Of a stretch of 64,000 nucleotides of DNA, positions 20,611-63,830 are shown piece after piece. Numbering within the stretch: the stretch's first letter is position 1; each line of letters begins with the position of its first letter. Made by a program: the position numbers and the translations under genes. The notes below the pieces were generated by a model that worked only from the letters and a program-made list of their open reading frames with translations, did not search any database and was not told the origin of the DNA. The stretch is from an uncultured virus (IMG/VR IMGVR_UViG_3300017917_005385) (taxonomy: Duplodnaviria > Heunggongvirae > Uroviricota > Caudoviricetes). The stretch lies in the IMG/VR virus record IMGVR_UViG_3300017917_005385; one strand, 5' to 3'.

Positions 20611-21081
20611 ATGAAACAGCCAAGTAAAGAAGATTTAATAAAAAAATGGGCACCTATTTTAGGGTCTATGGGTATGACTGGTTCACAATTAGATAATTTA
20701 TCACAGTTAGCCGAAAATCAGTCTAATCAAATATTAGAAGAAGAAAATAAAACTGAAGAGTTTCCAAGTTTATTTCCAATGGCTATGAAAATCTCAGCAA
20801 AAACTATTGGAATGGATTTAGTATCCGTTCAACCAATGACTGGACCAGGTGGAATGTCTGAAGAAGAAAGAAAAAGAATTGAAGCTGAAGTTAAACAAGA
20901 GAATCGTGATTCTAAAATTGACGCTTTAGTAGAAGGAACTGAATACAATGAAAAGAAAGTAGAAGACCATCCTGATTATAGACCTGGTAGTGGCGGTCAA
21001 TTATTTTATATGGATTATACATATGGTTCCACACATAAGAAAACAAGAAGAAGTAAAAAGAAGAAAAATGGCGGTATTTAA
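20611..21081 (+). CDS. Truncated gp23-like major capsid protein fragment with inserted RxxKI tag
   Basis: LIKKWAPIL, PMAMKISAKTIGMDLVSVQPMTGP..GQLFYMDY resemble the gp23 N-terminal half; the insertion contains RDSKIDALV; only 156 aa. Confidence 0.7.
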   Translation: MKQPSKEDLIKKWAPILGSMGMTGSQLDNLSQLAENQSNQILEEENKTEEFPSLFPMAMKISAKTIGMDLVSVQPMTGPGGMSEEERKRIEAEVKQENRDSKIDALVEGTEYNEKKVEDHPDYRPGSGGQLFYMDYTYGSTHKKTRRSKKKKNGGI

Positions 21082-21253
21082 GAGTCCGGGCGTTTTTGTC
21101 AAAGAAGAAGATATAGATATTGTTTATCCAAGGTTTTCTAAAAGATATACAAGAAGGATAAAAATAGGTAAAATATTTTATATAGATGTTCCTAATATTA
21201 TTATAACTTCTACTCCAAAAGGAGGACCCACAAACTTTCCACAAATCTGGTAA
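21068..21253 (+). CDS. Chimeric microprotein: tail-sheath N-terminus + tag + terminase coupling-motif-like peptide
   Basis: Start ATG 21068: MAVFKSPGVFVKEED..RRIKIGKIF..IIITSTPKGGPTNFPQIW. Confidence 0.6.
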   Translation: MAVFKSPGVFVKEEDIDIVYPRFSKRYTRRIKIGKIFYIDVPNIIITSTPKGGPTNFPQIW

Positions 21254-21282
21254 TGAAAACATGATAGAGTAATATATACTCT

Positions 21283-21618
21283 ATGATAAATGTTTATTTG
21301 ATATGCTCCGAATTTGAAGGTAGAAGATTGTACAAGATAGGTTATACGAGAAGAGATGTTTCTAAAAGAATTAAAGAGTTGAAGACTGGTAATGGTTCAG
21401 ATCTTTACATAATAGATTCATTTAAGTCAAAATGGGGTACTAAAATAGAGGCTCAGTTACATAGAACATTTAAAAGTAAAAAAGTCAACGGTGAGTGGTT
21501 TGATTTAACAGATGATGATGTTAAATCATTTATGGATAAATGTAAGTCTACTCACGATGTATTAGAAATTATAACAAACAATAATACCTACTATATGGAG
21601 ACTGGACGTTTATTTTAA
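21283..21618 (+). CDS. GIY-YIG family nuclease (T5orf172/MUG113-like)
   Basis: VYLI..YKIGYT..RIKELKTGN..E..LH..GEWF. Confidence 0.85.
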   Translation: MINVYLICSEFEGRRLYKIGYTRRDVSKRIKELKTGNGSDLYIIDSFKSKWGTKIEAQLHRTFKSKKVNGEWFDLTDDDVKSFMDKCKSTHDVLEIITNNNTYYMETGRLF

Positions 21619-21663
21619 ACTAAAAACATCATTTAATATATAAATAAAAAATATTTTTCAAAT

Positions 21664-21933
21664 ATGAGTTCAATGAAAGAAATGGCAATTAGAGAGTATA
21701 TCACTAAAGTTGATTTTAAAAATAGTGATTGGAAACTTTCTCAATTAAAAGAAGATATGAGAAAATTTTTAGGTGAAGAGCCTGGAGTTGATGTCATTTA
21801 CAAAAAAGATGTTATGGTTAATGAATTTACAGGTGAATCTAAAGAGTTTTTAGATATTGATAAAATACAAATAGTATTTACAGATACTGATGATAAATTT
21901 AAAAAGATAGAATTCATTTTAGGTGATATTTAA
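21664..21933 (+). CDS. Hypothetical protein
   Basis: 89-aa ORF with promoter-like elements upstream. Confidence 0.65.
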   Translation: MSSMKEMAIREYITKVDFKNSDWKLSQLKEDMRKFLGEEPGVDVIYKKDVMVNEFTGESKEFLDIDKIQIVFTDTDDKFKKIEFILGDI

Positions 21934-21935
21934 TT

Positions 21936-22295: not shown

Positions 22296-22341
22296 ACCAA
22301 ACACAGATTATTTGATATAATAAAAAAATAATCTATGTTTA

Positions 22342-24090
22342 ATGCTTATTAGTGAATTAGGAATTAGAGGATTCAAATCTTATGGAAATAACGAACAAAT
22401 CTTAAAATTAAATACTGAAAAAGGAGAATTAATTCTTCTTGTTGGAAATAACGGAGCTGGTAAATCTTCTTTGTTAGATTCCTTCGATTACACACTTTAT
22501 GGTAAAGTTAGAGGTCGTAAAAAGAAATGGGCTACTTTATCAACACTACCAAATAGAATTAACGGTGAACTACTTAATAGAATTAAATTCAATTCTTTAG
22601 GTACTGAAGTAGAAGTTAAAAGAGGTATTTCACCTTCTGTTTTGGAACTTATTGAAAATGGAGTTCCAAATGAAAGAGCCGGTAAAGGAAATATTGACGA
22701 AAAGATTGAAAAGTATATCGGTATGGATATCGAGACTTTTAAATCATTTATTTCAATGTCTATTAACGACTTTAAAAACTTCATCTCACTTTCAAATGAA
22801 GAAAAACAATTACTTCTTGATAAATTATTTAACCTTGAGGTTATCAATATTTTAAATAGTATCTTAAAAGATATTGCTAAGAATAATAAAACCAAAGCCG
22901 CTTCTTTTGATGCTGAAATTAGAACCTTAGATGACTCTATTGCCTCTATTCAAAGGTCTATTGATAAAGCTATTGAAAGACAAAAAGAAGAAGCCAGACT
23001 GGCTTTAGAACGTGAAAAAGAAGATATTCAATCTGAGATTGATAGAATCACAAATGAGATGAATTCCAGAAAAGATGATTATAAGTCTTTGAAGGAAAAA
23101 ATGGATAAAATAAAAGAAAAAGATTCTGAATTAGTTGAAGAGTTAGATAAAGAGAAAAGACAACTCATCAACTGTCAAAATGATATTAAGAATGTTCAAA
23201 GAGAGTTAGACTTATATGATTCTGGTAAATGTCCAACTTGTAAAACAGATTTTGATTCGGTTCACTTTGCTAATTTAAGAACAGCTTTAGAAGAAAAAAA
23301 ATTAGGCTTTGAAAATATTAAAGCTGAGATTGAAGCTAATGTTACTAAAGTAAGAGAAAGACAAACTAAGTTAAAATCTTTATCAGAAACTACAACAACA
23401 GCTTTTAATGATTTAAGTTATTTGTTGAAAAATTATAAATCAGAGATTGATAAATTAACTCAAAAGAAAGCTACTCAAACAGTTCCTGTTAATACTACAC
23501 CTTCAGTTAACATTCAAGAGTTTCAAGATACAATTGAAGAGCTTAAAGAAAAGAAAGTAGTTAGTACTGATAAAATTACTGAATGTAAAGAAAAAGAACT
23601 TTATTATAAAGAGTTGAATAGAATCTTTGGTGAAGATGGTGTTAAGAAGTCAATTATTGCTGGTATTATCAAGCCAATTAATCACTTTATTGCTGAGAAT
23701 ATTAAAAAGATGGGATTGCCATTTGAGGTAAAACTAGACGAGACTTTTACGGCAGAGATTAAACAATTAGGTTCTCAAATTGAACACGATTCTTTATCAA
23801 CTGGTGAAACTAAGAAAGTAAACATTAGTATCTTAATTGCTTACTTGAAATTGATTAGAACTAAACGACATATCAATATTTTGTTCTTAGACGAGGTTTT
23901 TTCATCGATAGATATCGAAGGTATAGATTCTATTTTGACACTCTTAAAATCGTTTGCAAACGATTACAACATTAATATTTTTGTTGTTCACCATGCTATT
24001 TTGAATCAAGAGATGTTTGATAGAATATTGAAGATTAATAAAGAAGTATTCTCATCAATTGAAGAAGTTAATTTAGACTATGGATCTTGA
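22342..24090 (+). CDS. gp46/SbcC/Rad50-like SMC ATPase (recombination nuclease subunit)
   Basis: GFKSY, GNNGAGKS, coiled coil with CPTC zinc hook, LSTGE signature, LFLDEVF, H-loop. Confidence 0.92.
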   Translation: MLISELGIRGFKSYGNNEQILKLNTEKGELILLVGNNGAGKSSLLDSFDYTLYGKVRGRKKKWATLSTLPNRINGELLNRIKFNSLGTEVEVKRGISPSVLELIENGVPNERAGKGNIDEKIEKYIGMDIETFKSFISMSINDFKNFISLSNEEKQLLLDKLFNLEVINILNSILKDIAKNNKTKAASFDAEIRTLDDSIASIQRSIDKAIERQKEEARLALEREKEDIQSEIDRITNEMNSRKDDYKSLKEKMDKIKEKDSELVEELDKEKRQLINCQNDIKNVQRELDLYDSGKCPTCKTDFDSVHFANLRTALEEKKLGFENIKAEIEANVTKVRERQTKLKSLSETTTTAFNDLSYLLKNYKSEIDKLTQKKATQTVPVNTTPSVNIQEFQDTIEELKEKKVVSTDKITECKEKELYYKELNRIFGEDGVKKSIIAGIIKPINHFIAENIKKMGLPFEVKLDETFTAEIKQLGSQIEHDSLSTGETKKVNISILIAYLKLIRTKRHINILFLDEVFSSIDIEGIDSILTLLKSFANDYNINIFVVHHAILNQEMFDRILKINKEVFSSIEEVNLDYGS

Positions 24091-24370
24091 TAATTTAATA
24101 ATTGAGTATTTGAATCTGAGATTAGAAAAGGTTAGGTCTGTTAAAAGGCAAAGTTGGCAAGTAGCTGCAGAGATTAGAGATAAAGAGCGCCTGAAATCAA
24201 AAGAAATATGGCAAATCTTAGCTCCAGGTGGTGAGTTTGTTGATTGGAATACTTGTGATAAAATCATAGATGATTATTGCTTACAAGTTTATAATTGTAG
24301 TACATATGATTATTCACTTTGTGTAAAATCTATAGAAAGAGTGAAAAAGTTAAGAGAGCTAGGTATATGA
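24080..24370 (+). CDS. UVR-domain-like microprotein with C-terminal tag
   Basis: KVRSVKRQSWQVAAEIRDKER resembles the UvrB/ClpC UVR motif; ends RVKKLRELGI. Confidence 0.65.
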   Translation: MDLDNLIIEYLNLRLEKVRSVKRQSWQVAAEIRDKERLKSKEIWQILAPGGEFVDWNTCDKIIDDYCLQVYNCSTYDYSLCVKSIERVKKLRELGI

Positions 24371-24777
24371 TTTTAATTATAGATGAAAAGATTATTGGAG
24401 AAGTAAACAAGGTTTTATTAACATCAACACTTGGTGATAATTATGTTACAGTTATTGTTAGTTGTGATGATAGTAAAAAATTTTTCCTTGATTGGTTAGA
24501 TTTTTATTCTAAACAACCTGCTAATGTATTTGATGAAAAAACACTCATTATATATGATGAAGTTTATGATAACTTAATAACAATATATGACTCTTATATT
24601 AAAGAGATTTTGAAATCTTATACAGATTGGTTTGGTAAAAAATTTGATAACATGTTTGAAATACATGTTGGTTACAAAGACTTTGAAGAAAAAAAACCCA
24701 GAGGTGAATCTGAGTTTTATAAAAATATCTATAAATCTTATTTAAGAGATAAAAAAATCAATCAAATCATAAATTAA
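24367..24777 (+). CDS. Hypothetical protein with C-terminal tag
   Basis: Start ATG 24367 (ATGA overlap); ends RDKKINQIIN. Confidence 0.65.
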   Translation: MILIIDEKIIGEVNKVLLTSTLGDNYVTVIVSCDDSKKFFLDWLDFYSKQPANVFDEKTLIIYDEVYDNLITIYDSYIKEILKSYTDWFGKKFDNMFEIHVGYKDFEEKKPRGESEFYKNIYKSYLRDKKINQIIN

Positions 24778-26350: not shown

Positions 26351-26542
26351 ATGCTAGTAGTTAAAGTTGAAGGAAATATGACAATTGAAAAAGCTCTTAA
26401 AACACTTAAAAGAAAGTGGGACAAAACAAAATCTATGAAAGAGCTTAGAGAAAGAAAAGAGTTCAAAAAGAGATCAGTTAAAAGACGTGATGAAATCACT
26501 AGAGCCGCTTATATTCAGAAGAAATATAGAAATAATGATTAA
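26351..26542 (+). CDS. rpsU: Ribosomal protein bS21 (phage-encoded)
   Basis: IEKALKTLKRK..ELRERKEFKKRSVKRR..AAYIQ; 63 aa, basic; Tyr at position 54. Confidence 0.88.
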   Translation: MLVVKVEGNMTIEKALKTLKRKWDKTKSMKELRERKEFKKRSVKRRDEITRAAYIQKKYRNND

Positions 26543-26831
26543 AAAACTGCTTAGTTTATTTCCTAATCAAACTAATAAAACATATGACTTAGGGAAATTA
26601 CAAAAATCTGGTTTTATAAAAAATTTAGATGATTTATCTGCTTGTCCAAATTGTAAAAGTAAAGATATAATTTGGGAGTTCTTTATACCAACAGATGGTT
26701 CTAAAACAACTCAAGATAGTTTATCTATTTGTAGAGATTGTGGTTACAATGATAAAAGAGGTGCATTTGAAGAAACAAATAAAGCCATTTTTAGACAACA
26801 AAAAATTAATCAAATATTAGATGGGATTTAA
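26535..26831 (+). CDS. Zinc-ribbon microprotein with C-terminal tag
   Basis: Start ATG 26535; CPNC..CRDC; ends RQQKINQILDGI. Confidence 0.65.
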   Translation: MIKKLLSLFPNQTNKTYDLGKLQKSGFIKNLDDLSACPNCKSKDIIWEFFIPTDGSKTTQDSLSICRDCGYNDKRGAFEETNKAIFRQQKINQILDGI

Positions 26832-27036
26832 TAAAAGATTTATCAGTCGTAAAAATTTAGAAATAATAGCTGAACAAGGTTTAGATAGTTTGATTAATTA
26901 TATAATTAAACCGGATGCTCTTATAATAGAGTCTGATGGTATTTCAGAAAAAGTTTGTGATATTGTAGGTAATACAAAAGATAAAAAAGAAATTAAGAAA
27001 AAATTAAAAGAAATAGGATTCTATGAATTTGAATAA
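26821..27036 (+). CDS. Hypothetical protein
   Basis: 71-aa ORF (MGFNKRFIS), overlapping both neighbours. Confidence 0.65.
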   Translation: MGFNKRFISRKNLEIIAEQGLDSLINYIIKPDALIIESDGISEKVCDIVGNTKDKKEIKKKLKEIGFYEFE

Positions 27037-27733
27037 AAACTACTATAGTATTCTTGGTGTTAAAAATACCGATGATGAAAAGACTATTAAAAAAGCTTAT
27101 TATAAATTATCATTCACTAACCACCCTGATAAAGGTGGTGATGCTATTCTTTTTAGTGAGATGACAGAAGCATACGATATTCTTTGTAGTGATAATAGAA
27201 AAGACTATGATTTAAAAAGTAAATTTGGAAATAACTATAACGAATATTTTGAATTATTTGATGTAAATATTGATTTTGATTTTGATAAAGAAAAGTCAAA
27301 TTTTGAAAAGTTTAAAAAATATGAAGTTAATGATATATATGTAACCATTGATGACAATTTTAATGGTTCATTAGAATATGAGAGATGGGTAAAATGTAAA
27401 ACTTGTGATGGTACTGGAAAAGACTTATCTGCAAAAATTGTTATTAAAGATAATGATGGTAATATTTTAAGAACTTTTGATGCTGATGATGGATGTGATT
27501 TTTGTGAGGGCTCTGGTAAAGACTATAAAGGAGAAACTTGTAATTTTTGTCAAGGAGCTGGCAAAGTAGGACTAACACCATGTAAAAAGTGCAACGGTGA
27601 AAAAAGAATATTAGGTAAACAAAAATTATCTGGAATTAAGCTAACAGGTGATGAGACTAAAATAGAATCAATGGGTAACTGTTCTAAAGATGTTGTAGGA
27701 ATGGTTGGATCTCTTATTCTAAAGAGAGGTTAA
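27023..27733 (+). CDS. dnaJ: DnaJ-like co-chaperone (J domain + zinc finger, truncated C-terminus)
   Basis: YYSILGV..HPDKGG; four CxxCxGxG-type repeats. Confidence 0.88.
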   Translation: MNLNKNYYSILGVKNTDDEKTIKKAYYKLSFTNHPDKGGDAILFSEMTEAYDILCSDNRKDYDLKSKFGNNYNEYFELFDVNIDFDFDKEKSNFEKFKKYEVNDIYVTIDDNFNGSLEYERWVKCKTCDGTGKDLSAKIVIKDNDGNILRTFDADDGCDFCEGSGKDYKGETCNFCQGAGKVGLTPCKKCNGEKRILGKQKLSGIKLTGDETKIESMGNCSKDVVGMVGSLILKRG

Positions 27734-37252: not shown

Positions 37253-37483
37253 ATGAAAAAAGAATATTACAACGAATTATTCGGTGGTAAAAAATACGGT
37301 GACTATATGGTTTATGGTTTAGATAAATCAGAATCTAAATATGAGGATTTAATAAATCTATTTGGTGATTACTATAACTCAGATACCTTTCAAGAAGAAT
37401 CAGAAGAACAAAAGGCTATTCGTGAAGCTAAAGAAAAAGCTGAAAAAAGAAATAATAAGATTGACCAAATTTTAGGAGAATAA
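37253..37483 (+). CDS. Microprotein with C-terminal tag
   Basis: Ends KRNNKIDQILGE. Confidence 0.7.
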   Translation: MKKEYYNELFGGKKYGDYMVYGLDKSESKYEDLINLFGDYYNSDTFQEESEEQKAIREAKEKAEKRNNKIDQILGE

Positions 37484-38043
37484 TGTCACAGATATCAATT
37501 TTTGATTGGCTTACGGCTTTACTAATAGTCTTGCCTTTATTTGGATTGTTTATATCAATTCCAAGTTTTGTATCTATGTATAAACTTGGATTCAAAGCTT
37601 ATAGACAACAATTGAGACTTTTAAAGATTATGATTAGAAAAGTATCAACAGGTTATAAAATTACACATAATCAGTTATATACATACACTGGTATGAGTAG
37701 TGGACCTCAAACTGTAACTAAATCAGAAACTAGCCACTTCTTTCCAATTTTTGTTGATAAAGAGCATTTATTAATTTTAACAAAGAAAGAAGGCCCTTTC
37801 AATACTCTTTATATTCAATACTCTGAACATAAAAATGATCAATGGTCAAATGATAATGTTGAAATAAAAACATCAAGTTGTTTACTTACTCAACTTCTTA
37901 ATGATAGATTTCAGAAAAAAGTTGATAATCTTATGAAAGAATCTATTCAACTTGATGATGTTAAAAATCTAAATGATTTACTAAATAGTCAAATAACTTC
38001 TATCAAAAGAGAAGAAGTATTAAACTCTATATTAAATGGATAA
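37483..38043 (+). CDS. Membrane-anchored protein with C-terminal tag
   Basis: N-terminal TM; ends KREEVLNSILNG. Confidence 0.7.
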   Translation: MSQISIFDWLTALLIVLPLFGLFISIPSFVSMYKLGFKAYRQQLRLLKIMIRKVSTGYKITHNQLYTYTGMSSGPQTVTKSETSHFFPIFVDKEHLLILTKKEGPFNTLYIQYSEHKNDQWSNDNVEIKTSSCLLTQLLNDRFQKKVDNLMKESIQLDDVKNLNDLLNSQITSIKREEVLNSILNG

Positions 38044-38200
38044 GAAAGATATTATTATAGTTGACCATATTAGTATGATAAGTTCTACTAAAGTGGATGA
38101 AAGTTTATTAGAAAAACTTAACATTCGTGTAAAGAATATTCGCAAGTATAGAGGTAGGATTGAAAGACGAAAAGAAAAAATAAAAAGAATTTATGAATAA
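38036..38200 (+). CDS. 54-aa microprotein: helicase Walker-B-like peptide + tag (not in ORF track)
   Basis: MDKKDIIIVDHISMISSTKVDESLLEKLNIRVKNIRKYRGRIERRKEKIKRIYE; overlaps each neighbour by 8 nt. Confidence 0.65.
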   Translation: MDKKDIIIVDHISMISSTKVDESLLEKLNIRVKNIRKYRGRIERRKEKIKRIYE

Positions 38201-38384
38201 TAGAGACGTTATTGATATCTTTGGACAGTTACTTAATAGTAATAAAGAAATTATGATGTTGAAAGCTAGACAAACTGGTAAGTCAAATGTTGCCTCACAT
38301 TTAATGGATTGGAAAAAACTATATGATAAACATGAAAGAGTAAGATTAAGAAAAGAAACCATAAAACGACTTTTTAATATATAA
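38193..38384 (+). CDS. Microprotein: terminase Walker-A-like peptide + tag
   Basis: IMMLKARQTGKS; ends RKETIKRLFNI. Confidence 0.65.
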   Translation: MNNRDVIDIFGQLLNSNKEIMMLKARQTGKSNVASHLMDWKKLYDKHERVRLRKETIKRLFNI

Positions 38385-38399
38385 TCTTAACAAAAAGAA

Positions 38400-39461: not shown

Positions 39462-39731
39462 TTAGTTAGACCAGTTAGGATTAGCTATGATTAGTTTACC
39501 ACGTTCAACTCTAGGAATTTCTCCTAAATCTTGATTATCAGCATACTCAATATCTTCATCATAGAATTTTTTACCATTGAACATAATATAATTAGCTTCA
39601 TCTTTACCTCTATGTGAAAAACCTTGACCTCTTAATGAGTCATGAGCAGCATCAGAAACCTTATCTCCTGATAACCAAGAAAATAAACCTTCCTTTACTG
39701 AAAAACTTTCAAATTTTTTAATGTGTTTCAT
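39462..39731 (-). CDS. Putative capsid-internal protein (CTS-like N-terminus)
   Basis: MKHIKKFESF; TAATATATA 39763-39755. Confidence 0.7.
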   Translation of the reverse strand: MKHIKKFESFSVKEGLFSWLSGDKVSDAAHDSLRGQGFSHRGKDEANYIMFNGKKFYDEDIEYADNQDLGEIPRVERGKLIIANPNWSN

Positions 39732-44066: not shown

Positions 44067-44705
44067 ATGATAAAAGTTGGTCTCTCAGGTAATAGATATT
44101 CAGGAAAAGATGAAGTTTGTAATCAATTCCGCAGGATTTCTATTCCTGTATTTGAAGCTGATGTAGTTTTAAGATTTATTATACATCATAATTTTGAAGT
44201 AAATAAAGAAATTAAATCTAGATTGAGTGAATTGTATGGTACATATGAAACTTATATTTCACCAGAGTTTGCAAAATCAAAAGAAGAAATTGACATTATT
44301 ATACAATGTGCTCAAGATGAATTATTCAGAGCATATGAACAATTCTCAATAAAAAATAAATCATCAATTTATACAATATTTAATTCATCTATACTTTATG
44401 AAACTAAATGGAATAAAGTTATGAATTATAATATCTCTGTCTTTGCTCCAAAGATTACAAGAATGGAGAGATTTCAAGAACTTACTAAAAAGAAAGTATC
44501 AGATATTGCTTTCTTATTAAGAAATGAAATTGATGATTTAGATAAGAACAAAATGGCTAACTTTGTATTACATAGTTATAGCGGCAGAGACGTAAAAAGA
44601 CAAGTTCATGAAATAGACCAGTTTGTGATAGATTCATATCTTAGAATGGAACAAACAGACAAATTAACTCCAGATGGTAAAGGTATAATTTTAACACATT
44701 TTTAA
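44067..44705 (+). CDS. coaE: Dephospho-CoA kinase-like P-loop kinase (divergent)
   Basis: MIKVGLSGNRYSGK..IPVFEAD..ILYE..K.KMANFV. Confidence 0.65.
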   Translation: MIKVGLSGNRYSGKDEVCNQFRRISIPVFEADVVLRFIIHHNFEVNKEIKSRLSELYGTYETYISPEFAKSKEEIDIIIQCAQDELFRAYEQFSIKNKSSIYTIFNSSILYETKWNKVMNYNISVFAPKITRMERFQELTKKKVSDIAFLLRNEIDDLDKNKMANFVLHSYSGRDVKRQVHEIDQFVIDSYLRMEQTDKLTPDGKGIILTHF

Positions 44706-45148
44706 TGAAAAATAAAATTAGAATTAAGTTAGTTTCACCAACTTCCAATAAGTTAGCATTTGTTAAACTTATTAAAGATTGTAGTGATATGGGTTTGAAA
44801 GAGGCAAAAGATATTTGTGACTTTTTACATGCGAATCCTGGTGTTGTTAAAGAATTCGAAACTAGAAAAGTTGACTCTAATGGTAATCATATAGACTTTA
44901 GAAAAAAGTTTGCTAATGATATCAAAAGTATTGATGGTAAATTTATTGTAAATGGTGGTTCTCAATGGGAGAGAGATGTAAAAATGCTAAAGCTTGGTAT
45001 TGGTGACACATCTGACTATTGTGAGGTTATCAAAGAAAATATTTTAAATAGTTTGGATAATTCAGAAGAGCTACTTAACTTTGTACTCTCGAAACTTTCT
45101 AAAAAAGAATTAGAAGAAGTTTTTAATAAAATCAATATAGAATTATAA
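44705..45148 (+). CDS. Ribosomal protein bL12 CTD-like domain + internal tag
   Basis: IKLVSPTSNKLAFVKLIKDCSDMGLKEAKDICD matches the L7/L12 GLKEAK signature; RDVKMLKLGI. Confidence 0.7.
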   Translation: MKNKIRIKLVSPTSNKLAFVKLIKDCSDMGLKEAKDICDFLHANPGVVKEFETRKVDSNGNHIDFRKKFANDIKSIDGKFIVNGGSQWERDVKMLKLGIGDTSDYCEVIKENILNSLDNSEELLNFVLSKLSKKELEEVFNKINIEL

Positions 45149-45547: not shown

Positions 45548-46273
45548 ATGATAGTAGTTTGTAAAAGACCAACTAAAAGACTTGTCAAAGGAGTTCAATA
45601 TGAAGTCGTTAACTTATGGAATTCCGGTAATAATCAAAGATGGCAAGAAGGAAAAGTTCAAATATTAGGAATTGGAACATTCATAGTTGATAACTTCACT
45701 GATGTCAATGGAAATCCTCTTCCGAAGACAGATATTATTACTCCTCTTCAACCGCTTCAAACATTAAAATTTGAAGATTTGAAAAAAGGTGATATTTTAG
45801 TTTGTACATCAGATAGTTATAAAACCTTGGGTAAGGGTTGCATGTATCAAATTGAAATATTAAACCAAAAATCTAGTCAGAGAATAGGTTGGAATAAACA
45901 ACCCTATACACACACTGAACAAAAAATTAAATTTGTTGGTATACCTCGTACAATTAAATTTAGTAGTTGGAGGTTTAGAAAACTCACACCACAAGAATCT
46001 CGTGAGATTTCTTTAAATTCTGTTTTACATGGTGAAGAACCTGTAATTGTAAAATCAAAAGATATTCGTAAGATTGAAATGGCTGCTAACAAAGAGTTAG
46101 AATTAATGACAGCTCTTTCAAAATCAATAATTGATCCTAATAGACATCACCTATCTATTTTAGATTGGGCTTGTCAGAAATCAGGTGATAATCTTGGTAT
46201 TAATACTGAAGACTATTCATCAATGATGAATATGAGTCTAAAAGATATTCTTGAAAAAATCGAAACAAAATAA
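45548..46273 (+). CDS. Tandem SH3-like domain protein with internal tag
   Basis: Two VC....L.KG..Y.[VI] units; REISLNSVLHG. Confidence 0.6.
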   Translation: MIVVCKRPTKRLVKGVQYEVVNLWNSGNNQRWQEGKVQILGIGTFIVDNFTDVNGNPLPKTDIITPLQPLQTLKFEDLKKGDILVCTSDSYKTLGKGCMYQIEILNQKSSQRIGWNKQPYTHTEQKIKFVGIPRTIKFSSWRFRKLTPQESREISLNSVLHGEEPVIVKSKDIRKIEMAANKELELMTALSKSIIDPNRHHLSILDWACQKSGDNLGINTEDYSSMMNMSLKDILEKIETK

Positions 46274-48825: not shown

Positions 48826-49065
48826 ATGTCAAGAACTCAAAAAGGTGATATATTGATTTGCTCAACAAATAAGCTTTATGGAATGAAGCAGCTATTAGTT
48901 GTTGGTGAACAATATAAAGTTGTTGATATATATGAAATGACTGAAAAGAAAATAGTTGATGTGATTCGTGTAAATACAAACGAAAGGCTAGGTCTATTTG
49001 ATGATAGACATTTTATACCAATAGATGTTTGGCGAGAATTTCAACTAAGAAAGATATTAGAATAA
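48826..49065 (+). CDS. SH3-like microprotein with C-terminal tag
   Basis: Start ATG 48826, 4 nt after TATATTTG; KGDILIC..L.VG.QYKV; ends REFQLRKILE. Confidence 0.65.
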   Translation: MSRTQKGDILICSTNKLYGMKQLLVVGEQYKVVDIYEMTEKKIVDVIRVNTNERLGLFDDRHFIPIDVWREFQLRKILE

Positions 49066-50825: not shown

Positions 50826-51301
50826 AACACTTAAATAGATTTAATGAAAGTTGGACACCTGATGAAAGTCGTCTAATGAAGGATTTTACAGAATCTGATA
50901 AAAAATTCTTTGATGAAGTATTTGCTGAGTTTATTGATTTAGGTGCCAAATCCGAATTATATGAGAGTAAAGTGACTCACTTTGAAGGTCGTGGTGGTTC
51001 TGGTAGATACGAACAAATGGTTAAAAGATATAGAATATATGTGGATTTAGCAAATATGGCTTCTAAAGGTAGATCAATTGGTAGTAGATTAGTTGACTTG
51101 GTTAGATATACAGAATCTTTGAATGAGTTATTATTAGAGTTGTACTCTTGTATTAGTAAGATTAAAGAAGAAGAAGATTATAAGTATGTTGGTACACACA
51201 GTTATAGTAATAAAAATTCAAAAGTTAAGTTAAATCATGAAGGATATGATGAAAGTGAAGTACCTGATAGATTTAATATCGTATTAGAATTATATAAATA
51301 A
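50822..51301 (+). CDS. Putative capsid-internal protein (CTS-like N-terminus)
   Basis: MKHLNRFNES. Confidence 0.7.
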   Translation: MKHLNRFNESWTPDESRLMKDFTESDKKFFDEVFAEFIDLGAKSELYESKVTHFEGRGGSGRYEQMVKRYRIYVDLANMASKGRSIGSRLVDLVRYTESLNELLLELYSCISKIKEEEDYKYVGTHSYSNKNSKVKLNHEGYDESEVPDRFNIVLELYK

Positions 51302-57756: not shown

Positions 57757-60700
57757 TTATCTTACAGAAACATTTATAGCCTGTGTAGCCTTTTTAACTA
57801 TTACTTTACTTCTATTTATGTTAAATTTAATACTAAAAGTAAACGGTCTATTTTCAGCTTCATTTTCTAAGAAAAACTTAACTTTCTTAATATGCTTAAC
57901 AGTTTGTTTACTTGAGTTTAAGTTTACATATTTATAGTTTAATCCATTTTGATTAATATCAAGTGAATTTAATTTAAAGTAAATATTAATAGGTATAATA
58001 ATTGAATTATTATCACCAGTATTAACTGTTTTAACCTTTTCTGAATTTGTTTCTACTATAGTTTCTAAGTTAGGAACAACAGGATGAATAGTTGTTAATA
58101 ATTTAGAAGTTGAAGAGACAGATGGATTTGTATCTACCCATTTCGAAGGATCTAATAAAGATTTATTGTTACCAACAAATGATAATATAGAAGATTCATT
58201 AAATCCAACATTATACTCACTAGAGGATAATACATTTGTTATTGAGTTAGAAACATTTGTTGTAAATAAATTACCAATATTCTCTGATAGTTTAGTAACA
58301 CTTGTTTCTAAAACAGAATCGTAGTTAACCATCCAGATAAATTGATTATCTAATTGGCTTCTAGTTTGACCACTTGTATCTGATGTTATTAACTCATCCT
58401 GGTCATTAACCCAGAAAGTTTGTGGTGCCGCTGTATTATAGTAGCTAGGATTTTGTAAATATGTTCTATTTGATAATAATCCTAATGCAGAACTTGTTGA
58501 TTTATTTCTAATCTTAACAACAAAATCTTTTATAACATAGATATTGTTAGCATATACTCTACCTGTTGGTATTCCTGCTCCACTGTAAGAGTCTAAATAA
58601 TCTTCACATTCAACATTGAATGTTGTTTCACTTCCATTAGATATAACAAACTCTTGGTTATTTCTAAGAATAACAACTTCAAGTTCACCTTTAACTCTTT
58701 TAATTCTTTCTTCTAGTGATGATATTCTATCTTGAAGACTCTTTAAATATGTAAATAAATCTAAGGCTACACCGTTTTCATCTTTGAAACCTGATAATAT
58801 CTTATCACTATCATGATGATATGTTAAATTATTAACAACTACTGTATCAGATAAGTGATCATCTAAACCTTTAGCTGATAGCTCTTGGTTCATTTTAATC
58901 TTTAAATCTTCTGATGTTGCTTCTTTTAATATGAAATCACTTTCATTTAATACATTATTTAAATCATCCGGAAACTCAACTGTTAAAATCTCAGACCAGT
59001 CTGATTCAGTAGGTGACTCAGGCCAACCAACTTCAGAAATTGATTTAATTCTTATTTCTATTTTTTCATTTGCTTGAATACTAAGATCTAATTGGTTTAT
59101 ATTTGGTGTATCAGCGTTTTCAATATCTTCAATTTCCCAAGTATATTCACCATTTGCTGGATTATAGTTTCTTTTTCTAGCATCTGTCTTAAACTCATTC
59201 CAATTAGAGAATGCAGCTTTTGATTGTGTGTTATCAACTGTAAATGTTTCTACAGGTGGCTCAGCACCATCTTTAGATACATATCTATATTGAACTCTAA
59301 ATTGAACAATTTCTTGTGGTCTAGTTCCTCTTGTAATAACAGGTGATGGAATAGTCCAGAAACCTCTAACTCTAAACTTAGGTTCTACTTTTGTTTTAGG
59401 GTTATTAGATAATGTTAATATTTCTTGTGTAGTTGTTGCTAATAACTTACTTCTACTATCTTTTTTTCTAATAAGTTCTTCTATTTCAAGAGCTACTTGT
59501 TTTTTCTCTGCTTCAGATTTAAATTTAACAAATTTAGATTTAGCATTTTTATCAACTATAGCATCTTGTATTTGTTGAACCTCTGATTTTAAAGTTAACT
59601 GATAGTTATGCTTTTGTTTAATTAAATTAGAATCTGGTGTATCTGTTAAGTGTCTATTTATCTGAACAACTTTGAAATTATCTAAATTTAATGTTGGTGA
59701 TATTGGTGTACCTGATAGTGAATTAGGTGTTTTCTTAGCAACTAAATCCTTTAATACTGTACCATAGTCATATACATAGTCTGTATAGAATTGTTCCATA
59801 GTAAGACCATTTTGAGGAGCTGTTGAATCTAATGTTAAGTCATTAGACCAAAAACCAGTACCTAAACTCCAGTTTCTAGCTAACAAGTGATTATCAGCAT
59901 TAATTGGTTTAACAAATATCACGTTTCTTTCATTATAGCCAATACTAATTTTAACTGTCTTATTGTAAATAACAGGTGAATATATTTTAAGACTTCCTAA
60001 AGCAACAGGTATAGGTTCCATTCCTTCAACTCTTTCAAGTCTAACTCTTGGTCTGGATTCAGCAGTAGAAACTTCAATAACTTTATACCTTGTAGAAGTT
60101 TTTTCTGAATTAACAATAACCTCACTATCAATAGATAATTGAGCTGTTTCATTTGTTGACCTAACTAAATAAGTTAATGTGTCTAGTACATACCAAAGTT
60201 TTCTATTGATTCTATCTTCTTGTATTTCTAAAACACTAAACTGACCATCATATAATAAATCATGTGGATCTAAATCAAATACCTCTTCATCAAATTTTGG
60301 ATTAGTTGGATCAATAACACCGGGTGTTGTTGTATGCCAGTTTTCAAAATCTGTTATTAAAATACTAGAGTTACCTCTAAATAAAGTGTTAAAACTATTT
60401 AATGCAGATTGACCTAAATTAGTCAATGCACCAGAAGCATCTTTAGCAAAATCAACAATATACCTTCTAGATTGAATTTTTCTAACATTATTTTCTACTT
60501 TGCCTGTTAAATCTAACTCAACTGATATTATTGGACTCATTAAACCATCAAAGAACCAATTGTTTACAGCCTTAAATTTATTTATAGTTCCTAATGCTCC
60601 GACCGCACTTGGTTCTCTGTTTAAGTCAACTGTGATTATCTTTTTATACTTGTTTTGATTTGAGGTTGCTATCATAGCACCTGCTGCATCAATACTGTAT

Positions 60701-60924
60701 AAAGAATTAATATTATTATTTAATCTATCAATTTCACCTTTTAGTGAGTTGAAAGAAGGTATTGCGAATGTTCTTAGAACACCGTTTTCATCATATACTC
60801 TTATATTTACTGAGTTGTCTTGTGTAGTAGCAAGTGAATTAATTTGACTTAGAATTTCTATAATATTTTTATTAGAAGAAATTACCTGGTCTGCTACTGT
60901 CGGAAATGAACTTTGAATAGGCAT
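57757..60924 (-). CDS. Large putative structural protein (coiled coil + FN3-like segment)
   Basis: 1055 aa; TAATATATA 60957-60949 upstream. Confidence 0.6.
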   Translation of the reverse strand: MPIQSSFPTVADQVISSNKNIIEILSQINSLATTQDNSVNIRVYDENGVLRTFAIPSFNSLKGEIDRLNNNINSLYSIDAAGAMIATSNQNKYKKIITVDLNREPSAVGALGTINKFKAVNNWFFDGLMSPIISVELDLTGKVENNVRKIQSRRYIVDFAKDASGALTNLGQSALNSFNTLFRGNSSILITDFENWHTTTPGVIDPTNPKFDEEVFDLDPHDLLYDGQFSVLEIQEDRINRKLWYVLDTLTYLVRSTNETAQLSIDSEVIVNSEKTSTRYKVIEVSTAESRPRVRLERVEGMEPIPVALGSLKIYSPVIYNKTVKISIGYNERNVIFVKPINADNHLLARNWSLGTGFWSNDLTLDSTAPQNGLTMEQFYTDYVYDYGTVLKDLVAKKTPNSLSGTPISPTLNLDNFKVVQINRHLTDTPDSNLIKQKHNYQLTLKSEVQQIQDAIVDKNAKSKFVKFKSEAEKKQVALEIEELIRKKDSRSKLLATTTQEILTLSNNPKTKVEPKFRVRGFWTIPSPVITRGTRPQEIVQFRVQYRYVSKDGAEPPVETFTVDNTQSKAAFSNWNEFKTDARKRNYNPANGEYTWEIEDIENADTPNINQLDLSIQANEKIEIRIKSISEVGWPESPTESDWSEILTVEFPDDLNNVLNESDFILKEATSEDLKIKMNQELSAKGLDDHLSDTVVVNNLTYHHDSDKILSGFKDENGVALDLFTYLKSLQDRISSLEERIKRVKGELEVVILRNNQEFVISNGSETTFNVECEDYLDSYSGAGIPTGRVYANNIYVIKDFVVKIRNKSTSSALGLLSNRTYLQNPSYYNTAAPQTFWVNDQDELITSDTSGQTRSQLDNQFIWMVNYDSVLETSVTKLSENIGNLFTTNVSNSITNVLSSSEYNVGFNESSILSFVGNNKSLLDPSKWVDTNPSVSSTSKLLTTIHPVVPNLETIVETNSEKVKTVNTGDNNSIIIPINIYFKLNSLDINQNGLNYKYVNLNSSKQTVKHIKKVKFFLENEAENRPFTFSIKFNINRSKVIVKKATQAINVSVR

Positions 60925-61010: not shown

Positions 61011-61014
61011 CTAC

Positions 61015-61254
61015 ATGATGAAAATTTATAAGATTACATTTAACGATGGTGGTTGGCATAGTGGTTCACTACCCAGTATAACAATAGTTGCTAAGTCTAG
61101 TGATGATGCAAAAGAAAAAGCATTATCTGAAAATCCAAGATATAAGCAAGGATATGATGTTTGGGTTTCTGAGTTCAAGATTGAGGGTTATGTAATTGAG
61201 GTGTATGACGAGAAGACATACAATCGTGATAAAAATATTGAAAAAATTCTTTAA
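61015..61254 (+). CDS. Microprotein with C-terminal tag
   Basis: Ends NRDKNIEKIL. Confidence 0.7.
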   Translation: MMKIYKITFNDGGWHSGSLPSITIVAKSSDDAKEKALSENPRYKQGYDVWVSEFKIEGYVIEVYDEKTYNRDKNIEKIL

Positions 61255-61281
61255 TTAGTAAAAATTGATTATCTTTGTAAA

Positions 61282-63105
61282 ATGATTGAACAACTAAAAG
61301 CGCAAATTATTAAGGCGAATGATGCCTATAGATTGGGTGAACCAATTATATCAGATGCTAAATACGACCAATTGGTTGAGGAATTAGCACTATTATCTCC
61401 AAATGATGAGCTATTAACCAAAGTCGGTCACGTTGTAGCAGACGAATCTCGTAAAAGTAAACTTCCTATTGAGATGGCTTCAATGAATAAGATTAAGTCA
61501 ATGGAAGATGTTGAAGATTGGTGCCGTCTTAAAGGTATTTCTAAGTCTGAATATGTAGTTATTACACCAAAATTTGATGGTCTCTCATTATGTGTTAATG
61601 AGACTACATCAGAGGCTTGGACTCGTGGTGATGGTGAGTATGGTCAAAAATCAAGCGAACATTATTCTTTGATTCAAAATCATCTTAATTTAGATGAACA
61701 ATCATTTTCTTTTACTTATGGTGAGGTAATGATGCCTAAGCAGGTATTTGTTGATAAATATTCAGCAGACTTTGCTAATCCTCGTAACTTAGTGGCTGGT
61801 CTTTTGAATTCAAAAGAACCTAGTCAATCTTTGAAAGATTGTCAATATATTAAATATGGTGCAATCTGTAATAAGAACTTTTCAACTAAACAAGAATTAT
61901 TAAACGAACTTAATATTGGTCAGAGTGTTAAAGTTCAATATCATATCTGTAAACTATCTGACCTTGATGAAGATTTACTAATTCAATTGTTTCATCAGTA
62001 CTCAACTGATTATGAAATCGATGGATTAATTATAGAGTTAAATGATCTTAGTTTACAAAAGCAATTAGGTCGTGAAACTTCATCTAATAACCCTTGCTAT
62101 GCAAGAGCATTCAAACATCCAAGTTTTGAACAGTCCGCTGAAACTGAAATCATCGGTATTTCTTGGAATATTTCTAAGCAAGGCTATCTAAAACCAACAC
62201 TACATATTAACCCTGTTCGTTTAGATGGTGTTACTGTGTCTAATGTAACTGGTAACAATGCTCGTTTTGTAAAAGACCTAGGAATTGGAGTTGGTGCAAA
62301 AGTTGTAGTAAAGAGAAGTGGTATGGTTATTCCCATTATTGCTGATGTTATTACACCTGTTGAGTTTCAAATGCCTAACGTTGATAATATCGACTGGAAT
62401 GAGAATGGTGTTGAGTTAGTAACTCTTGTTGAAACTGACGACCAAAAACTTAAAAAGATTGTTGCCTTCTTTGAAATCCTAGAAGCAGACAATGTGTCAG
62501 AAGGCGTTATCACTCAACTTTGGGAAGCTGGTCACAAAACAATCAAAGATATTCTTAATCTTAAAAAAGAAGATTTAGAAAAGATTGACCGTTTTGGAAA
62601 ACGTAAAGCCGAAATCGTCTATAACTCAATTCAAAAATCTATTACTGGTGTTCAACTTTCTAAAGTTCAACACGCTACCGGTATCTTTAAAGGTCTTGGT
62701 AGTAAGAAACTGGCTTTACTTGAACATTTCACAACTAAACCAAGTTTAGACCAAGTGATGTCTATTGAGGGATTTGCTGAAGTTTCTGCTAAATCATATA
62801 TTGATAGTTATGATGTGTACTTTGACTTTGTTAAAGACTTACCAATCACTATTGAAGAAAAAGTAAAAGCTGTTGCTGTTGGAACCGACCTAGAAGGTAA
62901 ACAATTTGTATTCACCGGTGTTCGTAGAGCTGACTTGGAATCAGTTATCGAATCTCGTGGTGGTAAGATTGGTTCTGGTGTTAGTAAAAATACAACACAC
63001 CTTGTGATGAAATCTGTTGGTTCTGGCTCTTCTAAAGAAAAGAAAGCAATTGAATTAGGAGTTGAAGTTATTACTGTTGAACAATTAGAAAATTTATTAG
63101 CATAA
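61282..63105 (+). CDS. ligA: NAD-dependent DNA ligase
   Basis: ISDAKYD, KFDGLS, TRGDG, NPRN, IDG, OB and HhH regions, C-terminal BRCT; TATCTTTG 61270-61277 upstream. Confidence 0.95.
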   Translation: MIEQLKAQIIKANDAYRLGEPIISDAKYDQLVEELALLSPNDELLTKVGHVVADESRKSKLPIEMASMNKIKSMEDVEDWCRLKGISKSEYVVITPKFDGLSLCVNETTSEAWTRGDGEYGQKSSEHYSLIQNHLNLDEQSFSFTYGEVMMPKQVFVDKYSADFANPRNLVAGLLNSKEPSQSLKDCQYIKYGAICNKNFSTKQELLNELNIGQSVKVQYHICKLSDLDEDLLIQLFHQYSTDYEIDGLIIELNDLSLQKQLGRETSSNNPCYARAFKHPSFEQSAETEIIGISWNISKQGYLKPTLHINPVRLDGVTVSNVTGNNARFVKDLGIGVGAKVVVKRSGMVIPIIADVITPVEFQMPNVDNIDWNENGVELVTLVETDDQKLKKIVAFFEILEADNVSEGVITQLWEAGHKTIKDILNLKKEDLEKIDRFGKRKAEIVYNSIQKSITGVQLSKVQHATGIFKGLGSKKLALLEHFTTKPSLDQVMSIEGFAEVSAKSYIDSYDVYFDFVKDLPITIEEKVKAVAVGTDLEGKQFVFTGVRRADLESVIESRGGKIGSGVSKNTTHLVMKSVGSGSSKEKKAIELGVEVITVEQLENLLA

Positions 63106-63108
63106 TTT

Positions 63109-63450
63109 ATGTCACTAATACATCATTTAGGAAAAGCGGAGACCTCTCAAGAAGGCGTGAATGATTTAGTAAAAGATTTAGAAACTTGTGTACAAACACT
63201 TGAGAATATCAATAGTATTCTAAAAGGTTCAAAATCAAGTGGAAGATCATATGTAGAAACTGAAGTCAATAAAAAAATTGAAGATGGTATATTAGATTCA
63301 ATTCATAATGCTAATAATCACCAATTAAGTGTTATATTAAATGGTGGCTATAGATTCAGATTTTATACTGAATTGAATAATAAAGAAACATTAAGAAACG
63401 AAATACAAAAAAGATTAAGAGATAACAAATTAAAAGAATTAGGACTATGA
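63109..63450 (+). CDS. Hypothetical protein with C-terminal tag
   Basis: Ends LRDNKLKELGL. Confidence 0.7.
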   Translation: MSLIHHLGKAETSQEGVNDLVKDLETCVQTLENINSILKGSKSSGRSYVETEVNKKIEDGILDSIHNANNHQLSVILNGGYRFRFYTELNNKETLRNEIQKRLRDNKLKELGL

Positions 63451-63830
63451 TATTTTTAGGAATTTTAATAGGATTTATTTTAGGTCTTCCAATTGGATTT
63501 ATTAAGTGGAAGAAAAAACAAGAACCTGTTGTTGAGAAATATACAAGACGAGGTTTATTAGGTAAAGAATTTAGCGTAACTGATGGTATAACCGGTAGAA
63601 AAAGCACAGTTGAGTGTAACTTTGAAATTGGTGAATTAGAATCAACAGATACTCTTTCAAAAATTGAAGTAATATTTGTTAAATCAAATCAATCTGAATA
63701 TAACACAGACTCTAATAAAAAGAGATTGATTGATATGATTGACAATACTTGGGTTAACTCCAAGGATATTATGTGGATTACAACTACGGCTGATGTTAGA
63801 AACAAAAAAATAGACCAAGTTTTAAATTAA
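63447..63830 (+). CDS. Membrane-anchored protein with C-terminal tag
   Basis: N-terminal TM; ends VRNKKIDQVLN. Confidence 0.7.
   Translation: MIFLGILIGFILGLPIGFIKWKKKQEPVVEKYTRRGLLGKEFSVTDGITGRKSTVECNFEIGELESTDTLSKIEVIFVKSNQSEYNTDSNKKRLIDMIDNTWVNSKDIMWITTTADVRNKKIDQVLN

Follow-up and report, generated by a model that had tools for sequence, protein, structure and literature searches.

In a 64,000-nucleotide stretch of DNA from an uncultured virus of the Caudoviricetes (IMG/VR record IMGVR_UViG_3300017917_005385), about one sixth of the genes encode small proteins that are unrelated apart from a shared two-turn helix at the C-terminus. We refer to the whole stretch as the window, to the helix as the tag, and to the proteins that end in it as carriers. 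The tag is real and modular, it is selected as a peptide, and it belongs to a distinct temporal class of genes that excludes a second, N-terminal tag of the same phages. Our preferred reading, to which we give a probability of roughly 55%, is that the tag is a portable helix by which the early accessory proteome is docked or addressed, and that it is read by one putative common partner. We infer a single reader, and our best guess is that this reader belongs to a shared hub, such as a protease, a chaperone, a scaffold, or a compartment.

The window is part of a Mahaphage-type megaphage. We compared it with the uncultured phage records LR756502 (642 kb), LR745206 (635 kb), LR756504 (636 kb), LR756501 (735 kb), LR756500, and Lak-B2. 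Its SbcC/gp46-like protein is 78% identical to that of LR756502, 73% to LR745206, 43.5% to LR756504, about 30% to LR756500 and LR756501, and 27% to Lak phages. At the DNA level, the only match in the phage collection was LR756502 (75%). The window has 29% G+C and a high coding density, and the head genes of the phage are T4-like (Gp23/phrog_138, from profile searches). The LR records are the largest genomes in the Mahaphage clade, and their predicted hosts are Bacteroidetes (PMC7162821).

The tag in the window

The strict motif R-x-x-K-[IL]-x-x-[IL]-[LG] has four matches among the 63 genes called in the window (20,320 residues). All four are found no more than 3 residues from a C-terminus, with no internal match, while 2000 residue shuffles of the same proteins gave means of 0.004 C-terminal and 0.19 internal matches. 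The motif is thus far more frequent than expected by chance.

We also scored the tails with a 14-residue position-specific scoring matrix (PSSM) that was trained on LR756502 only. An initial annotation, made from the sequence of the window, had listed 11 C-terminal and four non-terminal instances of the motif. The 11 C-terminal instances are all genuine ends of + strand open reading frames (ORFs). They score from 6.1 to 26.5, and 9 of the 11 pass 7.6, which is the 99.9th percentile for shuffled C-termini. The genes at 38036 and 38193 have marginal tails (6.1–6.2, P about 0.002). The carriers, with lengths in amino acids (aa) and tag positions in nucleotides (nt), are:

24080..24370, + strand, carrier of 96 aa; tag RVKKLRELGI at nt 24338-24367; strict match, PSSM 14.4
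24367..24777, + strand, carrier of 136 aa; tag RDKKINQIIN at nt 24745-24774; PSSM 24.7
26490..26831, + strand, carrier of 113 aa with a zinc-ribbon-like body; tag RQQKINQILDGI at nt 26793-26828; strict match, PSSM 17.8
37253..37483, + strand, carrier of 76 aa; tag RNNKIDQILGE at nt 37448-37480; strict match, PSSM 26.5
37483..38043, + strand, carrier of 186 aa with an N-terminal hydrophobic segment; tag REEVLNSILNG at nt 38008-38040; PSSM 14.1
38036..38200, + strand, weak carrier of 54 aa; tail RKEKIKRIYE at nt 38168-38197; PSSM 6.1, P about 0.002
38193..38384, + strand, weak carrier of 63 aa; tail RKETIKRLFNI at nt 38349-38381; PSSM 6.2
48826..49065, + strand, carrier of 79 aa; tag REFQLRKILE at nt 49033-49062; PSSM 10.6
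61015..61254, + strand, carrier of 79 aa; tag RDKNIEKIL at nt 61225-61251; PSSM 11.3
63109..63450, + strand, carrier of 113 aa; tag RDNKLKELGL at nt 63418-63447; strict match, PSSM 16.4
63447..63830, + strand, carrier of 127 aa, with an N-terminal hydrophobic helix, a beta-rich domain, and the tag RNKKIDQVLN at nt 63798-63827; PSSM 21.0

The carrier at 37253 heads a run of four consecutive carriers, downstream of a Sir2 gene, and the one at 63109 lies downstream of a gene for an NAD-dependent ligase. The stop codon of the carrier at 24080 overlaps the start of the next gene; the carrier at 24367 is followed by a convergent gene, so it has no coupled downstream gene. The 48826 gene has an orthologue in LR756502 that ends in the canonical RDSKLNEILK.

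The four non-terminal instances are a mixed set. RDSKIDALV, in the gene at 20611, is strongly tag-like (19.1), and the instance in the gene at 45548 is moderately so (9.7). RDVKMLKLGI in the gene at 44705 (2.6) and RRIKIGKIF (4.9) are not significant. The latter is in an overlapping frame with a GTG start (20990-21253), which is probably not a gene. The protein at 45548 is related to a carrier:

45548..46273, + strand, 241-aa protein with two repeats of the body of the 48826 gene, an internal REISLNSVL, and an extra domain of about 75 aa; PSSM 9.7

As the initial annotation had noted, the tag is not found in the window on large virion proteins, on enzymes, or on proteins with a start resembling a capsid targeting sequence (CTS), and the same holds for LR756502. 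The restriction to the + strand is true within the window but not beyond it: carriers in LR756502 are on both strands.

Scale and anatomy across megaphages

LR756502 was taken whole (959 genes). In this genome, 75 matches of the strict motif lie no more than 4 residues from a C-terminus; another 24 are elsewhere, 11 of them 5–8 residues before the end. The residue after the arginine (position +1) is outside the search motif, and it is D, N, or E in 68 of the 75. With an iterated 14-residue PSSM, and a threshold of about one match per shuffled proteome, we found 160 sites; 133 of the 959 genes have a site within 6 residues of the C-terminus. The consensus is [KLIV]-x-x-[IL]-R-[DNE]-x-K-[LI]-[NDK]-x-[IL]-[LG], a helix of about 13 residues, and then 0–4 residues and the stop codon. 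There are two flavours, ...K-L-x-x-L-G-I-stop and ...K-I-x-x-I-L-(0-4 residues)-stop. Across the 160 sites, the arginine is present in 158, D/N/E at +1 in 146, and lysine at +3 in 119. The distance from the end of the motif to the C-terminus is 0 residues at 9 sites, 1 at 70, 2 at 22, 3 at 11, 4 at 7, 5 at 8, 6 at 6, and more than 6 at 27.

The carriers of LR756502 have a median length of 111 aa, versus 147 aa for all of its genes. They are found throughout the record and are densest in two divergent arrays at its ends (28 of the 49 genes in the last 25 kb). Because many sub-threshold members of these arrays look like degenerate tags, the carrier share of 14% is conservative.

LR745206 has 105 carriers among 924 called genes, and LR756504 has tails of the type R-x-x-K-I-x-x-L-L. 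For the ...LGI-stop flavour, a DNA pattern had 23 matches in LR756502, 6 in LR745206, and one in the window. It was not found in LR756504, LR756500, LR756501, or Lak-B2, and the same pattern read backwards, as a control, had no matches.

LR756501 has a variant tag, [KR]-R-T-x-L-I-D-x-[MIV]-L. It is present in 9 of the 538 genes in the first 400 kb (versus 0.22 in shuffles), and there are five in a row in a separate 41-kb stretch, which makes 14 in 441 kb. The variant is seen at locus L021 (17794-19752) and at nine other sites in the first 400 kb. Relative to the main tag, it has T in place of D/N at position +1 and L in place of K at position +3, and these two positions should co-vary with the putative reader. 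We did not see the tag in 41-kb samples of LR756500 and Lak-B2.

Unrelated bodies and a conserved tag

With the tag trimmed off, the 133 carrier bodies of LR756502 form 127 clusters by blastp (E = 1e-3) or 124 by phmmer (E = 0.01), and the largest cluster has 4 members. The bodies range from 50 to 300 aa and differ in domain type and in membrane anchoring: the tag is found on riboflavin kinase, zinc ribbons, membrane-anchored proteins, and SH3-like bodies. Only 5 of the 133 match Pfam at E ≤ 1e-3 (riboflavin kinase, DUF6011, DUF2158, a zinc ribbon, and a weak BtpA). None of the 11 window carriers matches PHROGs (E ≤ 1e-3), and even at E ≤ 1 their sole Pfam matches are those of the 26490 gene, to zinc-ribbon/TackOD1 families, which are weak and below the cut-off. 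The 24080 gene, for instance, had no match in Pfam or PHROGs.

The carriers are among the less conserved proteins of these phages. Between LR756502 and LR745206, 28% of carriers (36/129) have reciprocal best hits, versus 39% (220/559) of other proteins of 50–220 aa. The median identity is 40.7% for carriers, 52.7% for the other proteins of 50–220 aa, and 60.2% for larger proteins. The tag is better conserved than the body that it is attached to: in 39 orthologous pairs of carriers, identity is 61% over the tag core and 39% over the body (Wilcoxon 1.1e-6). The orthologous partner is above the tag threshold in 33 of the 39 pairs, and the other six score 13.7–15.1. The ...LGI and ...IL flavours swap between orthologues. 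Three of the 11 window carriers have orthologues in LR756502 (37–49% identity), and all three keep the tag. The 63447 protein has 292 metagenomic homologues, and the tag is present in all 120 among the matches listed.

Internal and even N-terminal copies of the tag are conserved in orthologues. Internal copies arise through stop-loss fusion. As an example, a 336-aa ORF of LR745206 (571551-572561, - strand) joins a carrier to the homologue of a separate LR756502 gene, and the tag is internal as a result. The counterparts in LR756502 are 523012-523494 and 524020-524679, and the latter is the stand-alone gene. A Rosetta-stone search for receptor domains in the segments that follow internal tags yielded only the proteins' own orthologues and one stop-loss fusion to the gene downstream.

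In an AlphaFold2 model of the 63447 protein, built from 121 aligned sequences, the beta-rich domain has a predicted local distance difference test score (pLDDT) of about 90, and the tag is a terminal helix (residues 114–126) with a pLDDT of about 67. The model fits a tag helix that is not fixed on the core. For this one carrier, we compared the modelled domain with the PDB in a fold search, and there was no match at E ≤ 0.001.

The tag might have no common receptor at all. It could be an intrinsic capping, solubilising, or self-association helix that young ORFans require, or the carriers could be one hyper-diverged family in which this helix is all that is still conserved. SH3-like N-terminal hallmarks are present in 18 of 133 carriers versus 13 of 576 small non-carriers, which might mean that some carriers form a subfamily with one fold, and the dense tandem arrays suggest duplication. 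Iterative hidden Markov model (HMM) searches from 11 SH3-like seeds left the family size at 1–2. We rejected a single paralogous family as an explanation: neither all-against-all blastp and phmmer nor the iterative HMM searches gave a family of more than 4. The diversity of the bodies in length, domain type, and membrane anchoring also argues against a structural role, as does the lower confidence of the modelled tag helix relative to the preceding domain. By helical-wheel reasoning, R and K lie in the middle of the hydrophobic face. The conservation of R, D/N/E, and K speaks for specific recognition over generic amphipathicity, and we consider it unlikely that the tag works without a common receptor.

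Selection acts mainly on the peptide

In LR756502, each conserved position of the tag is encoded by several synonymous codons. The arginine codons follow genome-wide usage (p = 0.17), with AGA, AGG, and CGT all in use, and the interchange of I and L switches between ATA/ATT and TTA/CTA/CTT. Because the codons vary, selection acts at the peptide level. A purely DNA-level motif is ruled out by this codon diversity and by the 50 of 133 carriers that lack a coupled downstream gene.

A signal at the level of nucleotides or translation could take another form. The tag could be an A-rich, unstructured region for (re-)initiation at a coupled gene, or a junction for cassette recombination, and the peptide would then be a by-product. 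Carriers do have a same-strand gene within 10 nt downstream more often than other genes (75% versus 53%), and A-ending codons (AAA, TTA, ATA, and GGA) are enriched in the tag. Also, G is scarce in the 20 nt upstream of LR756502 starts, which fits translation initiation that relies on A-rich sequence and is poor in Shine-Dalgarno sites. On the other hand, the uncoupled carriers have equally good tags (PSSM 20.8 versus 21.8), so the link to translational coupling is an association only. Residue identity is kept through synonymous and first-base changes (for R, and for I or L), the tag is in frame at a variable distance from the stop codon, and the backwards-read DNA pattern is absent. We regard a nucleotide-level signal as quite improbable, and we conclude that selection is exerted chiefly on the peptide and that a preference for A-rich 3' ends is superimposed on it.

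Carriers are non-late genes and exclude an N-terminal tag

The word TTAATATATA lies 12–38 nt upstream of 201 of 954 LR756502 starts. Among the genes that it precedes are those of the capsid, tail fibre, and virion, as well as PhoH and a primase-like gene. It is probably the late (or phage-specific) promoter of the phage, and where it is at -12, the transcripts would be nearly leaderless. Examples in the window are found upstream of:

13712
28655-32035, - strand
32093-36445, - strand
57757-60924, - strand

A second tag, similar to M-K-[HY]-[LI]-K-x-[YF]-[KE]-x-F-E-[SN], starts 60 of the 959 genes of LR756502, versus 0.55 in shuffles. The form in the window is M-K-H-[LI]-[KQN]-[KR]-F-[EN]-[SA]-[FLW], on otherwise different proteins:

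19780-20241, + strand, N-terminal tag
39462-39731, - strand, N-terminal tag
50364-50825, + strand, N-terminal tag
50822-51301, + strand, N-terminal tag
18812, + strand, looser N-terminal tag
24774-26279, - strand, looser N-terminal tag
41947-42876, - strand, looser N-terminal tag
2140-2352, - strand, looser N-terminal tag

In LR756502, the N-terminal tag often ends in ...I-F-E-[SN], which matches the prohead-protease-site feature of the T4 CTS. We take it to resemble the CTS with its [LI]-x-E protease site, and by analogy it looks like a capsid-loading and protease-site peptide of the T4-CTS type.

The two tags differ sharply in their promoters. TTAATATATA stands before 34 of the 60 genes that start with the N-terminal tag and 166 of 761 other genes, but before only 1 of 133 carriers (Fisher 9e-14). 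If only genes with enough space upstream for a promoter are counted, the figures become 23/27, 113/353, and 1/34. Most carriers (129/133) belong to 61 operons that do not have TTAATATATA at their head. TAnnTTTG, which is presumably the Bacteroidetes housekeeping -7 box, is found at 20 of these 61 operon heads versus 12 of 126 heads with the late motif (p = 1.5e-4) and 8% of random windows. In the window, TTAATATATA precedes 18 of 64 genes and none of the 11 carriers, and carriers share operons with SbcC-like, Sir2, and NAD-ligase genes. We infer from these motifs that the carriers are probably early or middle genes. Also, no gene in LR756502 has both tags, where 8.3 would be expected, so the separation of the tag from CTS-like proteins extends to this genome.

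Other genes in the non-late operons of the window that contain carriers are a bL12-like gene (44705-45148), a 637-aa SPFH/Band-7 protein (46835-48748), and a Sir2-family protein (36533-37249). The end codons of the weak carrier at 38193-38384 (...L-F-N-I-stop) are also the late-type promoter word of the gene at 38400 (window 38349-38400), and this may explain why its tail departs from the tag consensus.

If the C-terminal tag were itself a signal for loading into the capsid or virion, like a scaffold or cargo-loading peptide, it would suit a phage with T4-like head genes, and C-terminal helices are known to load cargo in encapsulins and in the P22 scaffolding protein. Yet capsid, tail-fibre, and virion genes are preceded by the late-type promoter, which the carriers avoid, and a separate T4-CTS-like tag marks 60 late-class proteins and is never combined with the C-terminal tag. 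Virion loading is very unlikely indeed.

The bait or decoy proposal

The initial annotation explained the tag as the constant half of a "variable bait plus constant docking tag". In that proposal, carriers are snippets of capsid, terminase, sheath, helicase, and other conserved machines that would sequester immune sensors or competitors, with the tag directing them to a hub. The architecture holds up, as more than 100 proteins per genome combine a variable body with a constant terminal tag. The bait or decoy half does not. At least six carriers had been described as snippets, but no carrier matches terminase, sheath, or helicase (Pfam even at E ≤ 1, and PHROGs). Nor did we find terminase, portal, or major-capsid homology in the 11 window carriers (Pfam E ≤ 1, PHROGs E ≤ 1e-3) or in the 133 carriers of LR756502 (Pfam E ≤ 1e-3). 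Of those 133, 128 have no Pfam match at this threshold, and the five matches are not to virion or packaging proteins. The supposed UVR bait, the 24080 gene, has a marginal similarity to the UVR segment of a phage ClpC-like protein (BLASTP E = 0.014) and no PDB sequence match at E ≤ 0.5, so we rejected it.

Two of the named fragments do have profile hits:

20611..21081, + strand, paralogue of the major capsid protein, cut down to about its first 150 residues and holding an internal RDSKIDALV insertion; Gp23/phrog_138, PSSM 19.1
44705..45148, + strand, segment like the C-terminal domain of bL12; PF00542, 27.3 bits versus a cut-off of 25.9; the internal RDVKMLKLGI is not significant (2.6)

The truncated capsid paralogue is conserved: it is 52% identical to its orthologue in LR756502 and 28% identical to the 571-aa capsid protein. 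These two proteins speak for baits, but neither has a C-terminal tag, and nothing ties the tag to sensing of the Avs or CapRel type. A library of baits is not supported, is largely refuted for the C-terminal carriers, and is in our view very improbable as an account of the tag.

The capsid paralogue (156 aa, comprising the propeptide and the first conserved segment) adjoins an ORF for a T5orf172/MUG113 (GIY-YIG-like) endonuclease (21283-21618), which has a late-type promoter word of its own.

A docking helix and its candidate readers

The Mahaphage-clade megaphages of 634–642 kb place the tag on over 100 small ORFans that are unrelated to each other and evolve fast, and the 735-kb LR756501 places its variant on fewer proteins. 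The carriers come from non-late (probably early or middle) operons. If the tag acts, as is most likely, as a short linear motif for docking or addressing, the R, the K, and three aliphatic residues would form one helical face that is read by one common partner, and a large, fast-changing accessory proteome would thereby be tied to one hub.

Our leading guess for the reader, in which we have low confidence, is the proteostasis set that the phage co-expresses: Hsp70, a DnaJ-like protein, a ClpC-like unfoldase that lacks the N-domain, and ClpP. In that case, the tag could bring in a chaperone, mark proteins as a degron, or hold an adaptor in place. LR756502 encodes an Hsp70 (locus L010, 44282-46165), two full ClpP genes (locus L002, 8607-9281, and locus L003, 12095-12763), a shorter ClpP-like protein, and a 707-aa ClpC-like unfoldase (locus L009, 40544-42667) with a UVR-containing middle domain and a V-G-F loop. 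In the window, one candidate reader shares an operon with a carrier:

27023..27733, + strand, DnaJ-like protein (J domain and CXXCXGXG zinc finger), in the same operon as the carrier at 26490

None of the ClpC-like, ClpP, Hsp70, and DnaJ-like genes is in an operon with the late motif. The ClpC-like gene is present in LR756502, LR745206, LR756504, and LR756501 and absent from LR756500 and Lak-B2, which parallels the sampled pattern of the tag.

Several observations weigh against a docking helix that is read in this way. The co-occurrence of the tag with ClpC is weak evidence, as it comes from six related genomes and amounts to one or two independent events. The ClpC-like protein of LR756502 has about 45 disordered residues in place of the Clp_N domain and lacks an N-domain able to recognise the tag. 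LR756501 has the variant tag and a ClpC-like gene, and we found no ClpP. Lak-B2 has Hsp70 and no tag in the 41 kb sampled. The D/N/E within the motif is unlike classical DnaK-binding peptides. The gene calls are crude (the longest ATG ORF of at least 45 aa, which gives the 959 genes of LR756502), and the temporal class is derived from promoter-like motifs, not from expression. Finally, carriers have A at the third position in 55% of their last 10 codons versus 33% in their bodies, while the shift in non-carriers is weaker (41% versus 36%). In carriers without a coupled downstream gene, the value is 50%, versus 38% in uncoupled non-carriers. Because this excess persists in uncoupled carriers, some nucleotide-level selection is superimposed.

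In LR756502 genes overall, third-position A rises in the last 10 codons, and more so when the next gene is within 10 nt. The Hsp70 match of Lak-B2 is split across two frames.

As a special case of docking, the tag could be a degron or timer that marks early proteins for an AAA+ protease, either the phage's ClpC-like protein with ClpP or one from the host, so that host-takeover proteins would be cleared as infection proceeds. The C-terminal location and non-late class of the tag are in line with this, and so is the finding that carriers are the fastest-evolving and most dispensable genes. The phage also has the necessary parts: 2–3 ClpP genes and an unfoldase whose V-G-F loop we take to be of the ClpP-docking type. 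However, degrons that are read by the pore need the alpha-carboxylate, and here anything from 0 to 6 residues separates the tag from the C-terminus, with internal and N-terminal copies that are conserved. The Clp genes are non-late, so there is no obvious timer, and LR756501 keeps its tag without ClpP. We think that a degron is doubtful. Late clearance by a late-expressed Clp system was rejected, as the ClpC-like, ClpP, and Hsp70 genes are outside the late-motif operons.

A more ambitious version of the docking helix is a code of two labels. A late N-terminal label would send about 6% of the proteins to the capsid, and an exclusive, early C-terminal helix would send 11–14%, a quickly renewed set of binders unrelated to each other, to one proteostasis hub encoded by the phage. 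The candidates for that hub are the N-domain-less ClpC-like unfoldase with ClpP, or the Hsp70/DnaJ pair, and the carriers would be either interchangeable adaptors that hand over host targets or clients. We doubt this version as well. If it were true, a fifth of the proteome would be sorted by an addressing code, and the carriers would be a viral library for targeted degradation, or else clients whose folding or lifetime is centrally controlled.

Comparison with known systems

We did not find a description of the tag in the full-text literature that we searched, which included the available portions of PMC7824862 and PMC7162821; supplements were outside its scope. 

In phage T4, the ligands of the sliding clamp are the hydrophobic-acidic C-termini of the DNA polymerase gp43 and of the late factors gp55 and gp33 (PMC2988020). 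Like the tag, these tails are an interchangeable short C-terminal epitope that docks different proteins to one hub, and, as a further likeness, the epitope works when it is made internal by fusion (PMC2988020). The clamp epitope is hydrophobic-acidic and is found on the polymerase and late factors, whereas the tag is basic and aliphatic and is found on ORFans. In LR756502, the C-terminal polymerase ORF (PF00136 match) ends in ...SVVMDIFGGSGF and has no tag; homologues of gp55 and gp33 were not sought. As this polymerase tail is different from the tag, and is hydrophobic-acidic, we rejected the idea that the tag is a clamp-binding motif. The family-B polymerase matches in LR756502 at 119–122 kb (locus L003, 20483-21907, and upstream; loci L014 and L016) are in two adjacent frames, and one of them holds stop codons (one TAG and one TAA), so the gene is split or interrupted. 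There is a second, weaker PolB-like match at 255 kb.

The CTS of T4, which is found on IPI-III and Alt, is also a short terminal address peptide on otherwise unrelated phage proteins. It is N-terminal, it is followed by a prohead-protease site, and it takes a handful of late proteins into the capsid. In contrast, the tag is C-terminal, has no protease-site pattern, and is found on 11–14% of genes, which are non-late. When we looked for CTS features, 133 of the 160 PSSM sites were within 6 aa of the C-terminus, and E was found at +6 in 31 of 160. Inference from the promoter motif, given above for carriers and for genes with the N-terminal tag, does not associate the tag with late or head genes.

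Tags of the ssrA type and the ClpX-binding tail of SspB are short C-terminal peptides that link many substrates or adaptors to one unfoldase-protease. The tag differs in that it has no fixed register to the free carboxylate and has internal and N-terminal copies, and the ClpC-like protein has no N-domain. The cargo-loading peptides of encapsulins and the coat-binding helix of the P22 scaffold resemble the tag as short C-terminal helices or peptides with basic residues. These dock cargo to a shell with the HK97 fold, whereas the carriers are non-late and are distinct from the set of proteins with the N-terminal tag, which are more like capsid cargo. PEXEL and RxLR also place one motif on hundreds of fast-evolving, unrelated small proteins of one parasite genome. 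These motifs are N-terminal, follow a signal peptide, and serve export, whereas the tag implies no signal peptide or export machinery.

The tag may or may not belong with the membrane-targeting amphipathic helices of MinD and FtsA, which are C-terminal and do not need specific residue identities: it is amphipathic and C-terminal, but its conserved R, D/N/E, and K point to specific recognition. In comparison with the helix-extended-helix of SAP, HeH, and Rho_N, the carriers end where the second helix would start. We found no match to these profiles in 12 window proteins (the 11 carriers and the 45548 protein; Pfam E ≤ 1) or in the 133 carriers of LR756502 (E ≤ 1e-3).

Short terminal address peptides in phages were previously found on a handful of proteins, as in the T4 CTS and the clamp-binding tails. 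Here, selection has kept one helix on over 100 ORFans per genome that are unrelated to each other and quickly replaced, and the genomes are those of the largest known phages. The tag is a handle on the "dark matter" of huge-phage genomes: it predicts which ORFans are of the early accessory class, and it could name the hub for a seventh of the proteome. If it is portable, it would be a ready-made targeting peptide. Together, the C-terminal tag, the N-terminal tag, and the promoter motif allow much of the proteome of uncultivated megaphages to be classified from sequence alone.

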